From a virus (lineage: Duplodnaviria; Caudoviricetes): a stretch of 64,000 nucleotides of DNA. Of this stretch, positions 2,738 to 35,075 are shown piece by piece. A program made the position numbers and the translations under genes. The first letter of the stretch is position 1. The number at the start of each line of letters is the position of its first letter. The stretch is from IMG/VR virus record IMGVR_UViG_3300029319_000001; one strand, written 5' to 3'. Below the pieces are notes generated by a model, which was not told the DNA's origin, made no database searches, and worked only from the letters and a program-made list of their open reading frames with translations.

Positions 2738-2893
2738 ATGCTTCGTTTACTTAAGAATCCACTTGTTCTGATCAATGTCATGTTGATCGGATTTTTTATA
2801 TTTGTAGAGACAATGCATGTTAATTATCATAGGGGGTTGACACAGTGTGAGGAGTCTGCTATTATAAAAGAGTTGGACGCAACATGGGAGTGA
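2738..2893 (+). CDS. Small membrane protein, 51 aa (not in ORF track)
   Basis: ATG 2738 to TGA 2893, MLRLLKNPLVLINVMLIGFFIFVETMHVNYH..., one hydrophobic helix; overlaps a hairpin and a promoter. Confidence 0.3.
   Translation: MLRLLKNPLVLINVMLIGFFIFVETMHVNYHRGLTQCEESAIIKELDATWE
2767..2797 (+). terminator. Possible intrinsic terminator
   Basis: TCTGATCAA-N7-TTGATCGGA stem (one G-U pair) followed by TTTTTT, just after the hub cluster. Confidence 0.35.
2837..2865 (+). promoter_or_regulatory. Sigma70-type promoter
   Basis: TTGACA (2837-2842) - 17 nt - TATTAT (2860-2865), directly upstream of the structured RNA. Confidence 0.8.
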
Positions 2894-3053
2894 CTGAATA
2901 AACTTACTGGCAACTGCTGGTTAAGGTGATGAGACACAGGTGGTGCTGCTCCGAAAGGAGAACCGATCAACCAATCGGGTCTCAGGCAAGAATGTTTTTA
3001 CTACTGTAGTAATGCCCATTCTTTGTTGGTACACAGGAATCCAACCTCCCTCC
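2872..3053 (+). ncRNA. Structured ncRNA, probably the manA RNA motif of cyanophages
   Basis: GC-richer non-coding stretch; GGGAG 2886-2890 pairs with CTCCC 3046-3050; TGAGAC/GTCTCA and CTCC-GAAA-GGAG stems. It resembles my recollection of cyanophage manA RNA; a covariance-model search is needed to confirm the name. Confidence 0.65.
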
Positions 3054-3073
3054 TTTTTATCATGTGATTTATT

Positions 3074-3271
3074 ATGACCGAAGAATTCGTTGAAAAAGTT
3101 GTTGTAGATGTATGCTCTCGTAGAGTATGTTGCGTCTCTAGTAAGGGAGATAGAAGGATACTTGAAAGTGAAACTTTCACAGAATTTATGAATGTGTTGA
3201 ATTTTGTTAGAACAACACTAGATGAAGATGAAATCGTATATACAGAAATATTAGTAGATGAAGACAGATAG
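3074..3271 (+). CDS. Conserved cyanophage hypothetical protein
   Basis: 65-aa ORF coupled to downstream genes; usual neighbour of talC. Confidence 0.6.
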   Translation: MTEEFVEKVVVDVCSRRVCCVSSKGDRRILESETFTEFMNVLNFVRTTLDEDEIVYTEILVDEDR

Positions 3272-3530
3272 ACTAATTGTTGTCGCTAGAATGATAGGGA
3301 CATATGGTATAATATTAGGATATTTTGTTACATTGCATGTAAGCACTCTTTTTGGTGCTATGCTTAATGTAGTCTTTGAACTACTTGCCTTACCGTTCTA
3401 TATAAAGAACAAAATGTGGGATGTAGTAATTTGTTTTTCATTCCTATTATCAATAGGAATTAGTAAAATTATTATGGGGTTTGATCCTCAGTTCCAATTT
3501 ATAAAAATCGCTATGGGGTTACACGCATGA
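3258..3530 (+). CDS. Hypothetical membrane protein
   Basis: Three hydrophobic segments; ATGA overlap with talC. Confidence 0.6.
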   Translation: MKTDRLIVVARMIGTYGIILGYFVTLHVSTLFGAMLNVVFELLALPFYIKNKMWDVVICFSFLLSIGISKIIMGFDPQFQFIKIAMGLHA

Positions 3531-23565: not shown

Positions 23566-23637
23566 ATGTGGTATGTAATATTTTGGACAGTATTAACAAT
23601 TTATCTTTTGAAACAAGTAGGAGTATTTAAAAAATGA
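23566..23637 (+). CDS. 23-aa single-helix membrane microprotein (not in ORF track)
   Basis: MWYVIFWTVLTIYLLKQVGVFKK; ATGA-coupled to the next ORF. Confidence 0.4.
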   Translation: MWYVIFWTVLTIYLLKQVGVFKK

Positions 23638-23810
23638 CATTTCTATCATGCCCACCTGTATATCATTTGCCAGGAACATGGACAGAGTGTAAGAAACCAT
23701 TAATTAATCATCTTAATCTTGAACCAAGTATAGGATTTATGGTATTTTTTGGATTGCTTTTTATATTATTAGTTGCTTATGGTATTACTAACTTAAAGAA
23801 AGCAAAATGA
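23634..23810 (+). CDS. 58-aa membrane microprotein (not in ORF track)
   Basis: MTFLSCPPVYHLPGTW...FMVFFGLLFILLVAYG...; ATGA overlaps at both ends. Confidence 0.55.
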   Translation: MTFLSCPPVYHLPGTWTECKKPLINHLNLEPSIGFMVFFGLLFILLVAYGITNLKKAK

Positions 23811-24028
23811 AATTCGACCCCAATAGCATACCACTAAGAAATACATCACAAGAATTTGAATATGAGAAGATATCAAGAGAGATTGATCGATGTGATGATA
23901 TTAAGGAGTTGCAGAATATGTGTAAGTTTCTACTCAAGTTAGAAATGAAAACTAGGGAGACTTATAGTATTATGATTGCTGATACTATTGAAGCAATGAA
24001 CATAGACCTACCACAGGACAATTTGTAA
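23807..24028 (+). CDS. Conserved cyanophage hypothetical protein
   Basis: 73-aa helical ORF, coupled upstream. Confidence 0.65.
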   Translation: MKFDPNSIPLRNTSQEFEYEKISREIDRCDDIKELQNMCKFLLKLEMKTRETYSIMIADTIEAMNIDLPQDNL

Positions 24029-24072
24029 AGTGTACACTATCGGTTGCAATACTTTTCAATATGACCTATATT
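24017..24072 (+). promoter_or_regulatory. Early-type promoter with upstream box (copy 2)
   Basis: GACAATTTGTAAAGTGTACAC; TTGCAA (24044-49) - 17 nt - TATATT (24067-72). Confidence 0.75.
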
Positions 24073-24078
24073 AAGAAT

Positions 24079-24330
24079 GTCGAAACAAACCAACATAAGA
24101 CTTTCAAGGTTGCGGAGACCGAAACTGTATGATCGAGGAGGTGTAAGTCCCCATTGATTAATGACTAGTCAGTTAATCAAAAGAATACCACGCAGTCGCA
24201 CCACGCATTTAATTTGAACTTAAGCAGTTGAGTTTTGTTTCGACCCACCTACACCACAAAATAGTGGCATTTATCAAGCACTTGTCTGATGTAAAATCCT
24301 AGGTCTCAGACTACATGATGTAAGACCACT
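24079..24330 (+). ncRNA. Candidate structured ncRNA or long 5' leader, family not recognised
   Basis: Perfect 11-bp closing stem 24079-89/24234-44 starting at the predicted TSS; internal hairpins 24154-24180, 24099-103/24145-49, 24254-67, 24284-311. Confidence 0.6.
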
Positions 24331-24336
24331 TAAAAC

Positions 24337-24393
24337 TGACAGTTAAAAAACTGTCACAAGAGACCTAACAGGTCTCTTTTTTTATGTCATAAT
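24337..24393 (+). promoter_or_regulatory. Box copy 3 (perfect palindrome) with extended -10
   Basis: TGACAGTT-N4-AACTGTCA, then TGtCATAAT at 24385-24393. Confidence 0.65.
24358..24383 (+). terminator. Intrinsic terminator
   Basis: AAGAGACCT-aac-AGGTCTCTT followed by a T-run. Confidence 0.7.
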
Positions 24394-24414
24394 AATAATA
24401 TAGACAACAAATTA

Positions 24415-24648
24415 ATGAATTTTATTCAACGATACAAAAAACCCGAATACATTGGAGTCGGGGATAATGTCAAATATAATAATAAGGAGTATCAGGTTCT
24501 TATTAATTATATCAAGGGAGATAAAGATCGTAAGGGATTTATCCCAACAGAAAACTTTACTATCCTAATTGACCACAATGGCAAGAGAATTACTTGTCAT
24601 GATTATACTGAACTTGAAATCTTAACAAATTCTACTTTCATATCATGA
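24415..24648 (+). CDS. Hypothetical early protein (SH3-like beta composition)
   Basis: IGVGDNVKYNNKEYQV...; first ORF after promoter. Confidence 0.6.
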   Translation: MNFIQRYKKPEYIGVGDNVKYNNKEYQVLINYIKGDKDRKGFIPTENFTILIDHNGKRITCHDYTELEILTNSTFIS

Positions 24649-24806
24649 AGATTACACCAAAAGAAAAAATGATAGTCAACCTCATGGAAGAGGTTATCAG
24701 CATTCTATCAACATGCAAAGACTTATCAGACCCAGAGTTCTCAATGTATGAGACTATGAAACATGCTGTTGATACAGAAGTTTACTACCCACTATACGAC
24801 AACTAA
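24645..24806 (+). CDS. 53-aa hypothetical protein (not in ORF track)
   Basis: MKITPKEKMIVNLMEEV...; ATGA overlap. Confidence 0.55.
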   Translation: MKITPKEKMIVNLMEEVISILSTCKDLSDPEFSMYETMKHAVDTEVYYPLYDN

Positions 24807-24819
24807 GGAGGAATTAATT

Positions 24820-25071
24820 ATGTCATACTGCGATTTATGTCATGTCTATGATGACGAGCATACCGATGGCGAACCATCAATGCAGATCGGGAAATATTAC
24901 AAACCATTACTAGACTATTTCTATAGTGTAGAGGTCATGGGCGAGAAATGGTGCGACTACAACTGGGGAAAACTTAAAAACTCAGAAGGCGATGAAGTCA
25001 CTTGCATGTGTCAAATATGTTTCAATTCTATGGATAGGATGGGTAAAATCAAATGGAAATGCTCATCATGA
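24820..25071 (+). CDS. Small putative Zn-binding protein
   Basis: GGAGG SD before ATG 24820; CDLC near the N-terminus and CMCQIC near the C-terminus. Confidence 0.6.
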   Translation: MSYCDLCHVYDDEHTDGEPSMQIGKYYKPLLDYFYSVEVMGEKWCDYNWGKLKNSEGDEVTCMCQICFNSMDRMGKIKWKCSS

Positions 25072-25941: not shown

Positions 25942-27216
25942 TTGATTACACTAAGACCTCATCAAGAGCGAACACTTGACAAATTAAAAAAGTTCGATAA
26001 AGGTTGTGTGTATATTCCTACTGGTGGTGGTAAGACTATCATTATGTTGGAAGATTTAGTACAACGATTAGAAACTAGTGATGCTCCATTAACTGTTGTT
26101 ATTGTTGCACCTCGTTTATTACTAGCAAATCAATTATGTTCTGAATTTCTAGAATATACACAGGACAATGATAACATAGTTCTCAATGACAACTTAAATA
26201 TATTGCATGTTCATAGTGGAGAGACATCTTTCGATTCATCTACCAGACCTCGTTACATTCATGAGTGGATAGTTGATAGACAATTTCAATTACAGCATCA
26301 AATCATATTTTCTACATATCACTCACTAGGCAGACTAGAGGATGCTATGATAGATGTTGATATCATGTATTGTGATGAAGCACATAACGCCACTCAGAAA
26401 AACCATTTTGTTGGAGTTGCTAACACATCTACCAATGCATCTAACAGTTATTTTTTTACTGCTACACCAAAATACACTAGACAAACTAATGGTAGAGGTA
26501 TGAATAACACCGATGTTTTTGGTAAAACTCTAATTAGTGTTCCTGCACCAGAATTAATTGACAATGGTAGTATTATACCACCAAAACTTGTAATACATGA
26601 AACAGAGCATGTGAGAACTAAACAAAATGCACCTGATGTAGATAGAGAAATGATATTAGAAATTCTCGAAGATATATCAGAAGAACAAAGTGCTAAAGTT
26701 TTGGTTGCTGCTCCTAATACTACAATATTATGGAGAATATTATCACAGACAAATCTCTTATATGTCTTAAAGCAATTAGGTTATGATGTATTACATATTA
26801 CATCAAAGCATGGTGCTTATGTCAATGACAAGAAAGTTGGTAGGGATGTATTCTTTAATACTCTAACAGAGTGGGGAAGGGATGACAATAAAAAGTTTAT
26901 TGTATTCCATTATTCTATATTATCTGAAGGTATCAATGTTCCAGGATTAACTCATACAATATTATTGAGAAATCTACCAGTTATCGAAATGGCACAGACC
27001 ATAGGAAGAGTCATAAGACTACATAAAGAAGATGCAGATAATATTGCTAAGGGCAATATTCCAGTTGGTAACTATCAATTATATCGTAAATCTCATGGAG
27101 TGGTTACAGTTCCGTTATGTGGTAAAGCATCACTCTCAACTAGGAAGAGACTAGAGAAGATTATCGAATTAATCTTTGAAGATGGACTTCCTGCACATTC
27201 ATTCGCTAACTCTTAA
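25942..27216 (+). CDS. Superfamily II DNA/RNA helicase (ResIII-like)
   Basis: PTGGGKT (Walker A), CDEAH, FTATP, LSEGINVP, QTIGRVIR. Confidence 0.92.
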   Translation: MITLRPHQERTLDKLKKFDKGCVYIPTGGGKTIIMLEDLVQRLETSDAPLTVVIVAPRLLLANQLCSEFLEYTQDNDNIVLNDNLNILHVHSGETSFDSSTRPRYIHEWIVDRQFQLQHQIIFSTYHSLGRLEDAMIDVDIMYCDEAHNATQKNHFVGVANTSTNASNSYFFTATPKYTRQTNGRGMNNTDVFGKTLISVPAPELIDNGSIIPPKLVIHETEHVRTKQNAPDVDREMILEILEDISEEQSAKVLVAAPNTTILWRILSQTNLLYVLKQLGYDVLHITSKHGAYVNDKKVGRDVFFNTLTEWGRDDNKKFIVFHYSILSEGINVPGLTHTILLRNLPVIEMAQTIGRVIRLHKEDADNIAKGNIPVGNYQLYRKSHGVVTVPLCGKASLSTRKRLEKIIELIFEDGLPAHSFANS

Positions 27217-34319: not shown

Positions 34320-35075
34320 ATGGCTAAAGGATTTACTGTTAAGGCGAAAACACCAAAAAAGACTAAAGAACCCGAATGGGATTATGATAAAGCATGGGAG
34401 ATGTTAAAGGGCAAGGCAATTGTCTTTTGTATGCCTGGTCGTGGATGCTCATTTCAGTTCTTAAAGAGTTTCGTTCAACTTTGTTTTGACTTAGTTCAGC
34501 ATGGGGCGAGTATACAGATATCTCAAGACTATAGTAGTATGGTCAACTTTGCTCGGTGTAAGTGTCTAGGGGCGAATGTTCTTAGAGGACCTGATCAGAT
34601 ACCTTGGGATGGCAAACTAAACTACGACTACCAATTATGGATTGATAGTGATATCGTCTACGGAACAGAGAAGTTCTTACAACTCGTTCTTATGGACAAG
34701 GACATTGCTGCAGGTTGGTATATGACAGAAGATGGTCGTACTACTAGCGTTGCTCACTGGTTAGATGAGGGCGACTTCCGTAATAATGGTGGAGTTATGA
34801 ATCACGAAACAGGTGAGACCATGACTAAGCGTAAGAAACCATTTACTGTCGATTACACTGGTTTTGGTTGGTGTCTGATTAAGAAGGGAGTATTTGAACA
34901 TGAAGGTATGAAGTATCCTTGGTTTGCTCCTAAGATGCAGGTATTTGAATCGGGCGATGTTCAAGATATGTGTGGGGAAGATGTGAGTTTCTGTCTTGAT
35001 GCAATAGAATCAGGATTTGAGATATGGTGCGATCCTCGTATAAGAGTGGGTCATGAGAAGATGAGAGTTATATAA
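34320..35075 (+). CDS. Conserved cyanophage GT-A fold (GT2-like) glycosyltransferase
   Basis: LWIDSDI (DxD), YTGFGWCLIKK, GEDVSFC, DPRIRVGHEK. Confidence 0.7.
   Translation: MAKGFTVKAKTPKKTKEPEWDYDKAWEMLKGKAIVFCMPGRGCSFQFLKSFVQLCFDLVQHGASIQISQDYSSMVNFARCKCLGANVLRGPDQIPWDGKLNYDYQLWIDSDIVYGTEKFLQLVLMDKDIAAGWYMTEDGRTTSVAHWLDEGDFRNNGGVMNHETGETMTKRKKPFTVDYTGFGWCLIKKGVFEHEGMKYPWFAPKMQVFESGDVQDMCGEDVSFCLDAIESGFEIWCDPRIRVGHEKMRVI

Follow-up and report, generated by a model that had tools for sequence, protein, structure and literature searches.

T4-like cyanophages are among the most abundant viruses of the ocean and control populations of Prochlorococcus and Synechococcus. Cyanomyoviruses and marine metagenomes are also almost the only source of two orphan structured RNAs, manA (RF01745) and wcaG (RF01761), although manA has also been seen twice in gamma-proteobacteria (Weinberg et al. 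2010, PMC2864571). T4-type phages further possess PeSLs (promoter-early stem-loops), which are multi-copy junctions, located at cassette borders, of an early sigma-70-type promoter and a simple, terminator-like stem-loop, and which have roles in transcription and the recombination of DNA (Arbiol et al. 2010, PMC2839356; PMC4122927). Here we describe an RNA encoded in a 64,000-nucleotide stretch of viral DNA (IMG/VR record IMGVR_UViG_3300029319_000001; 'the window' hereafter refers to this whole stretch), a T4-like cyanomyovirus sequence whose closest database relatives are Prochlorococcus and Synechococcus myoviruses. Positions 24079-24244 form the core domain of a real, transcribed and structured non-coding RNA, and the family to which it belongs was previously uncatalogued and is confined to T4-like cyanophages (Kyanoviridae). 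Searches of the full-text literature found no published description of the RNA, although it may have been mentioned earlier.

As judged by sequence comparison, the family is without a detectable relative and is closest in kind to the orphan manA and wcaG RNAs of the same phages. Like these, it is found downstream of promoters and ahead of varied genes and has conserved junctions held between covarying stems. There is, however, no match in sequence or structure to manA, the model for which finds only positions 2871-3055 of the window. Unlike manA and wcaG, the new RNA occupies a recurring locus, with a single confident copy in each genome, begins where transcription starts and in some phages is an independent transcript with a terminator; unlike manA, it has no established cellular copy. 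With the PeSLs it shares a location in the variable region of early-promoter and terminator junctions, and a similar junction of box, terminator and -10 element flanks the RNA, but it is not a multi-copy promoter/stem-loop: it is single-copy and transcribed, and has a complex conserved core with ~30 invariant nucleotides and covarying helices.

Architecture and covariation of the core

The RNA lies in a 386-bp gap (24029-24414) between ORFs 23807-24028 and 24415-24648, both of which are on the + strand. The initial annotation had put this gap at ~385 bp and had proposed that it encodes an unrecognised, multi-branched RNA of ~170 nt. Taken on its own, the sequence folds with an energy of -40.8 kcal/mol, with z-scores against shuffles of -2.4 for the + strand and -1.4 for the - strand. 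This is just modestly unusual, and the case for structure therefore rests on comparison with relatives. For the 312-nt stretch that reaches to the downstream terminator, the fold is well below shuffles (z -3.8).

In minimal homologues the conserved unit is 65-100 nt long and is made up of the outer stem P1/P1b, a NUAA / A loop, a further short stem with a bulged A (P1c), the strand J1, the hairpin P2 and the strand J2, with J1 and J2 building a large asymmetric internal loop or junction. The perfect 11-bp pairing between 24079-24089 and 24234-24244 that was noticed at the outset is present in the sequence, as is its extension by CAAC (24091-94) and GTTG (24227-30), and TGCG (24111-14) can indeed pair with CGCA (24204-07). 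Across the 124 homologues that were collected, all three helices are kept by compensatory changes, which affect every one of the 11 P1 pairs as well as the P1b pairs. More than 35 distinct outer-stem sequences are seen in the family, whilst the closing 4 bp of P2 occur in 18 combinations, nearly all of them standard pairs. P1c is made by G24099, C24101, U24102 and U24103 pairing with AAGC at 24222-24225, with A24100 bulged, and here positions 24099 and 24225 covary without exception (G-C in 100 and A-U in 24 of the 124 collected copies).

In an alignment of 72 sequences that was fitted to a covariance model, which itself favours pairing, standard pairs occupy 97.8% of cells, as against 78.9% in shuffles and 33-48% when the registers are slid by 1-3 columns, and compensatory changes are seen in 23 of the 26 pairs. 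An alignment-free check gave duplex energies of about -18 kcal/mol for cognate stem arms and about -9 kcal/mol for non-cognate arms.

The strands enclosed by these stems behave quite differently, with ~30 of the 35 nucleotides of J1 and J2 never varying. The 15 nucleotides that follow the first base of J1 are identical in the 124 collected copies save for the G/A at 24099, whilst the free positions in J2 are 24213 (G/A/U) and 24215 (C/U/A) and its last base, 24226, is A in 115 of the 124. Scans baited with one strand only (J1 or J2) yielded no true copy in which the other strand was changed. Three UAAG tetrads are contained in the core. With the J1 and J2 nucleotides invariant, covariation gives no access to their fold, and thermodynamic predictions of the core disagree, some giving an extended internal loop and others a four-way junction; J1 and J2 are also able to form alternative mini-hairpins. 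Two predicted pairings can be set aside. Pairing of GACUU in J1 with AAGUC in J2, which appears in the minimum free energy (MFE) structures of related loci L088 and L092, involves positions 6 and 8 of J2, which vary (G/A/U and C/U/A, respectively) without compensation. The J2 self-hairpin that gives a cloverleaf-like four-way junction in L075-type MFE structures loses its central G-C pair in 48 of 124 copies, the partner C being invariant.

Variation in length is accommodated in P2, whose span (stems included) ranges from 13 to 149 nt across the family and which tolerates inserts of up to ~140 nt. In the window, the P2 loop holds an 89-nt insertion that otherwise occurs only in the close relatives L013, L018 and L046; minimal homologues have a 6-nt loop in its place, and in the RNA contig of a relative (run X19) it is replaced by 9 nt. 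The insertion contains a hairpin at 24154-80, a GG/CC hairpin with the loop UGUAAGU and the first copy of ACCACGCA, and medium and long forms have a further internal loop (GAUAC/..AUA type) in common at the insertion base. Much of the inner structure described in the initial annotation turns out to belong to this lineage-specific sequence, including the ~170-nt multi-branch shape itself. The 24154-24180 hairpin is present in the window but, lying wholly within the insertion, is absent from most homologues. A proposed GACTT/AAGTC stem takes its AAGTC from the insertion (24146-50), whereas the family pairs GACUU with the AAGC of P1c instead, and a possible pseudoknot joins complementary strands of which one, GGTGTA (24140-45), is in the insertion and the other, TACACC (24250-55), in the unconserved 3' flank. 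Since they depend on the insertion, the inner stem, the hairpin and the pseudoknot are not features of the family. The ACCACGCA repeat does exist in two copies, although the first is at 24187-24194 and not at 24188-95. The coordinates of the features are collected in Table 1.

Table 1 Features of the RNA and its surroundings. Positions refer to the window except where a related locus (L) is named
Feature	Position	Strand	Remarks
Transcribed RNA, minimum extent	24079-24340	+	Marine metatranscriptome contigs
Promoter	24044-24072	+	-35-like TTGCAA 24044-49, 17-nt spacer, -10 TATATT 24067-72 (consensus scan)
P1 and P1b, 5' strand	P1 24079-24090; P1b (CAAC) 24091-24094	+	Pairs with 24227-24244
J1	24095-24110	+	A-UAAGACUUUCAAGGU here, N-UAAGACUUUCAAGGU in family; near-invariant, 16 nt
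P2, 5' strand	24111-24114	+	UGCG, pairs with CGCA
Insertion in P2 loop	24115-24203	+	89 nt, lineage-specific
P2, 3' strand	24204-24207	+	CGCA, pairs with UGCG 24111-14
J2	24208-24226	+	UUUAA-N-U-N-GAACUUAAG-Y-A; near-invariant, 19 nt
P1/P1b, 3' strand	24227-24244	+	GUUG, bulged A24231, G24232-C24244 with one extra U
Second domain	24264-24329	+	Closed by conserved clamp 5' GUGGCA ... GUAAGACCAC 3'; inside X15 contig
Palindromic box of next promoter cassette	24337-24356	+	TGACAGTT..AACTGTCA
Intrinsic terminator	24358-24385	+	9-bp stem then T-run; overlapped by next promoter
Clamp-closed domains elsewhere	L008 3628-3696; L028 9713-9781; L076 1608-1676; L075 520-587; L092 9639-9706		
Second RNA module	L092 8949-9050; L190 1502-1604		Also in L041 and L038, downstream of core

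Distribution, transcription and genomic context

Copies of the RNA were gathered by pattern scans, of which four covered viral contigs and one each covered metagenomes and cellular genomes, and the matches were filtered using a covariance model built from 17 short copies. This identified at least 124 distinct full copies from at least 219 phage and marine metagenome loci. The metagenome scan matched at least 120 contigs, those listed by name being marine. In BLAST searches, both ends of the element were detected in P-SSM4, P-SSM3, P-RSM3, P-RSM4, S-TIM4 and MbCM1, where the interiors between them are shorter; these copies are intergenic and in four of the six phages map at ~41-43 kb, that of P-SSM3 being at ~124 kb. 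The complete genomes searched have one confident copy each, to which P-HM2 adds a weak stem-only match, and there is no further copy inside the window. A higher-GC subtype is present in MED4-213 and P-HM2, and the locus partly aligns in P-HM1. In 185,579 cellular genomes, no copy passes the model except one on a 1-kb contig in a bacterial metagenome-assembled genome, which is probably a fragment of phage DNA; the 76 pattern matches found in cellular genomes are at chance level and a host origin, or host copies, can be discounted. The RNA is small enough for direct biochemistry and is present in the cultured phages P-SSM4, P-SSM3, P-RSM3, P-RSM4, S-TIM4, P-HM2 and MED4-213.

No known RNA family accounts for the element. 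Searching with Rfam 15 (4227 models) gave manA as the only gathering-level match in the window, nothing plausible at E<=10 across 23900-24500, no family match for the minimal homologues and no gathering-level match in 12 related loci, so the impression at the outset that the RNA matches no recognised family was correct. Weak matches to SraG (in the terminator region), Glutamine-II and the TMV pseudoknot are all far below threshold; that to Glutamine-II (RF01704; 9.4 bits against a gathering score of 33, E = 2.8) rests on GCGUUCA in the P2 loop of one subtype. Models of self-cleaving ribozymes (hammerhead, twister, twister-sister, hatchet, pistol, HDV-like and hairpin) gave no match at E<=10, and ARAGORN found no tRNA or tmRNA genes in the window. 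A 26-codon ORF at 24077-24157, which might instead have been the conserved element, is not: its ATG is lost in many homologues, being replaced in GGGG-type copies, indels in P1b shift its frame, and the frame stops after 8, 11 or 23 codons in P-SSM4, P-RSM4 and MbCM1. The window does contain one catalogued RNA, a full-length manA at 2871-3055 on the + strand (189 bits).

The first base of P1, G24079, is 7 nt past the -10 element TATATT. In most homologues the -10 and its trailing TATATTAAKAATG/TATATTAATAGTG have the same spacing to the outer stem, and in P-RSM4-type copies the -35 is a perfect TTGACA. The usual arrangement upstream of the homologues is a palindromic box and a -35/-10 of sigma-70 type, in some cases with a terminator as well; some copies have a CTAAAGTGT..TATAGTG motif instead. 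Evidence for transcription comes from marine metatranscriptomes. A 263-nt contig from RNA run X15 (depth 21) matches 24079-24340 with 0 mismatches and begins exactly at the predicted transcription start, and a contig from run X17, which is from a separate study, covers 24135-24340, whilst the flanking genes have a depth of 0-2 in the same runs. When searched for alone, the 262-nt stretch was found in 16 RNA runs with more than 10 study codes, at 29-100% of the sampled words (uncovered parts of 23600-24900 and small shares in other runs were not counted as evidence). These data agree with a discrete, abundant RNA made from the predicted start, one that extends as far as 24340 or beyond, taking in a second domain, rather than ending after ~170 nt. 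The RNA is both widespread in the ocean and expressed. Taken together, covariation, transcripts, the non-conservation of the ORF and the negative Rfam searches bear out the central proposal of the initial annotation, that of an unrecognised structured RNA of no known family starting at a predicted transcription start.

What follows the RNA differs from phage to phage. The 129 distinct downstream contexts comprise 79 of leader type, in which an ORF starts 15-25 nt past the RNA, 20 in which a terminator and then a new promoter come first, and 30 others. The window and P-SSM4 are among the 20, and equivalent terminators are located 3' of the RNA in P-SSM4-type, L027-type and L066-type contexts. 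Because the terminator and fresh promoter cut off the next genes, the RNA of the window, like that of the P-SSM4 and L027 types, is a separate transcription unit; it is a free-standing RNA of ~260-305 nt that ends at ~24340 or at the terminator. A Shine-Dalgarno (SD)-like tetramer precedes only one of the 79 leader-type starts. A U/A-rich tract is found before these starts, often opening with CACCUAUU or CCUCUCGUC. The downstream proteins belong to at least 14 unrelated families, with a further 19 singletons, and a suggested partnership of the RNA with a downstream nuclease or helicase consequently lacks support. In the window, ORF 25942-27216 (424 amino acids) encodes a DEAD/SNF2-type helicase, and no Pfam family was found in any of the small ORFs neighbouring the gap.

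Possible functions of the RNA

When an RNA of 65-100 nt is under such constraint, it is normally a ribozyme, the aptamer of a riboswitch or a surface dedicated to the binding of protein or RNA, and none of these has so far been described for the fold of this RNA. Our preferred reading, which is a tentative one, is that the RNA itself is the functional product and that its invariant loop presents a fixed surface to a conserved macromolecule, most likely a protein. That the product is the RNA is suggested by its single copy at a recurring locus, by the lack of relationship among the genes downstream and by the versions that are terminated and stand alone. A fixed surface with a conserved partner is suggested by the combination of an invariant loop with stems that vary freely around it. 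A protein is favoured over an RNA as that partner because host complements to J1 and J2 are not enriched: in one Prochlorococcus genome there are 105 complements to J1 compared to 93 for a reversed control, and 0 to J2 compared to 2. On this proposal, the J1/J2 loop would fold into the fixed surface and be framed by the stems, and the RNA, abundant and made early, would serve as a decoy, a sponge or the subunit of a ribonucleoprotein. The candidate partner could be a phage protein, for example the translational repressor RegA, or the transcription, translation or RNA-decay machinery of the host, and an ORF located directly after the RNA would simply borrow its promoter.

In these respects the RNA would be comparable to 6S, CsrB and RsmZ, which are abundant non-coding RNAs with conserved unpaired motifs on a structured scaffold, the short motif repeated here being UAAG. 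No match to the 6S or Csr families of Rfam was found, however, and the minimal forms have no long hairpin with a central bubble. The hairpin of 6S is ~180 nt, with a large central bubble resembling an open promoter; as the minimal forms are far too short, and the additional length of the RNA in the window comes from a dispensable insertion, 6S-like mimicry of RNA polymerase, which was one of the functions suggested initially, is unlikely.

RegA is a lead in the search for a binding partner rather than a result. The protein is encoded in 5/5 of the genomes tested, and RegA proteins select UAA-rich RNA. The RegA sites of T4 and RB69 are short and unstructured, overlap the AUG and consist of UAA-containing, A/U-rich RNA near early-gene starts. 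The RNA resembles a RegA operator in being UAA-containing and A/U-rich and near the starts of early genes, but its UAAG motifs belong to a domain that is folded and that precedes the AUG by at least 15-25 nt, or else no ORF follows. The RNA may be a dedicated antagonist of the RegA translational repressor; it may, alternatively, dock on the tRNA elbow by means of a double T-loop surface.

Several points weigh against the idea of an RNA that acts as a binding surface in its own right. The RNA that RegA recognises at start codons is generally regarded as unstructured, and conserved junction nucleotides combined with free stems are a hallmark of riboswitch aptamers and small ribozymes too. Contigs cannot prove the ends of an RNA or its relative abundance, their ends being hints, and the relative's contig in run X19 extends 59 nt upstream of the stem, which could reflect promoter DNA or read-through. 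Furthermore, the 79 leader-type contexts place the ATG 31-61 nt downstream of J2, peaking sharply at 43, and such tight spacing would be explained no less well by a role in cis, in translation or stability.

Such a cis-acting 5' leader would shield the early transcript from 5'-end-dependent decay by RNase E or RNase J, using the +1 stem and folded core, and may aid the loading of ribosomes on an SD-less start ~20 nt downstream. We consider this unlikely, although there is a good deal to be said for it besides the ATG spacing and the scarcity of SD-like tetramers: the stem begins at the predicted start, as does the RNA contig, the same promoter and outer stem are found with a different interior (L092, L190) or with none (P-HM2), which suggests a general 5' cap, and the high read depth could be that of a stable decay remnant. 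A simple hairpin would suffice for this purpose, however, leaving the ~30 invariant loop nucleotides unexplained; one transcript per genome carries the RNA, whichever gene follows; and in the window and P-SSM4 the RNA is cut off from the downstream genes altogether. Gene contexts also count against a riboswitch, in which the invariant junction would be an aptamer for a host metabolite or signal and would control a downstream terminator or start codon. The anatomy is that of an aptamer, with conserved junction strands, covarying stems and a peripheral hairpin of variable length; the RNA sits directly past the promoter, some contexts have a terminator downstream, the alternative J1 and J2 mini-hairpins make a conformational switch conceivable, and an orphan RNA of the same kind, manA, is encoded in the same window. 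There is no coherent set of regulated genes, though, the downstream genes being without a common function, and no host copy of the RNA. Where terminators are present, they are 110-140 nt beyond P1, with another domain between, and do not overlap the aptamer 3' strand, whilst leader-type copies have no SD to sequester. The sole riboswitch match is the sub-threshold one to Glutamine-II, and we regard a riboswitch as distinctly improbable.

Similarly small is the chance that the RNA is a processive antiterminator, binding its own RNA polymerase as nascent RNA and allowing this to read through the terminators of the downstream cassette array. The model for this would be the put RNAs of the lambdoid phage HK022, each of which consists of two stem-loops that make RNA polymerase terminator-resistant; T4-like phages are not known to have anything comparable. 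The likeness consists in a compact fold right after an early promoter, indifference to the downstream genes and the presence of terminators further on. Transcription from an early-type promoter yields this RNA first, there is one copy per genome regardless of the next gene, strong + strand terminators are found at 24358-78, 27662-83 and 31707-26, within 8 kb, and invariant loops would be well matched to a target as conserved as RNA polymerase. On the other hand, each downstream cassette seems to own a promoter, an ORF without a nearby terminator follows most copies, and the RNA contigs end at 24340, before the terminator, with low depth downstream (in itself weak evidence). If true, this would be an RNA-only device at the head of the early cassette array and the first put-like antiterminator outside the lambdoid phages, and would provide a concrete mechanism for T4-type phages to read through early terminators. 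It is very unlikely that the RNA is a small self-cleaving ribozyme or RNA-processing signal, with the 5' end at 24079 resulting from cleavage and not from the start of transcription. In size and pattern of conservation the RNA does resemble small ribozymes, it is phage-borne in varied gene contexts, L075/L076-type copies have no obvious promoter directly upstream, and in HDV-like and hatchet ribozymes the cleavage site is the 5' edge of the ribozyme itself. No ribozyme model matches, however, and a -10 is at the right distance in most copies; intact RNA spans the whole domain, with which cleavage at the 5' edge would still be compatible. Slimmer still are the prospects of a base-pairing sRNA, the single-stranded invariant strands of which would be seeds against host or phage mRNAs. 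A discrete, abundant early RNA with its own promoter and terminator, and with long invariant unpaired stretches, would be suited to this role, but complements to J1 and J2 are not enriched over the reversed controls in the one Prochlorococcus genome checked, and ~30 invariant nucleotides in a structured frame are atypical of seeds. That the conserved element is not an RNA at all, but a DNA site (an operator, origin or recombination site) or the 26-codon peptide, is largely refuted. Inverted repeats could bind a protein, and the region is a recombination-prone one of promoter and terminator cassettes, but the compensatory changes keep pairing and not sequence and the element is present in RNA libraries. 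There is no turn in GC skew at 24 kb, as would befit a replication origin, and the peptide loses both start codon and frame in homologues.

Modules flanking the core

Downstream of the core, the RNA of the window has a second domain that is closed by a clamp. The consensus of this clamp, 5' KKGGCA ... RUAAG-N-CCMM 3', also closes domains of ~55-75 nt that adjoin the core in other phages, on its downstream side in L008, L028, L039 and L092 and upstream in the L075/L076 type, whilst in a subfamily comprising L071, L088 and L192 it closes the core itself. Five pairs of the clamp are kept in 10/10 sequences, two pairs show compensatory change, and the interiors differ. The clamp is the P1c motif (UAAG-N-YY opposite RRGCA) in reversed orientation. 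Its recurrence suggests that there is a wider set of modular early RNAs in T4-like cyanophages. In the loop of the second domain, UAGGUCUC (24300-24307) is complementary to the 5' arm of the terminator (24358-24366) and could antiterminate; as most copies have no such terminator, this is not a feature of the family.

The terminator is overlapped by the next promoter, the extended -10 of which, TGTCATAAT, ends at 24393. Here (24337-24356) and in most homologues, a pseudo-palindromic box, TGACAGTT-N-AACTGTCA, is found ~30-50 nt upstream of the -10. A terminator often occupies the -35 position, and this architecture of cassette junctions recalls the PeSLs.

In the MbCM1 record (L003), two CDSs annotated as helicase look like annotation artefacts: that at 2857-3120 on the - strand overlies the RNA, and that at 3135-3359 on the + strand encodes 74 amino acids without similarity to helicase. 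The 246-amino acid CDS upstream of the RNA corresponds to a truncated C-terminal half of the helicase. As this ORF continues to the end of the helicase and the downstream 'helicase' is unrelated, the RNA is not an intron or insertion in a helicase gene.

Finally, the promoter and outer stem are also seen with other contents. A second RNA module, GGCAARGAUCUAUGG...UGUAAGUCC, which is without a match in Rfam, occupies the same setting of promoter and GGGAAACAAAAC outer stem, and the core RNA comes ~600 nt further downstream on that contig. In P-HM2, positions 34526-34587 of the record (L187 ~1500-1560) contain the promoter and an outer-stem-like hairpin, GGAGAAAACAACC/GGUUUGUUUUCUC, without a core, which suggests that the +1 stem is a reusable 5' module.

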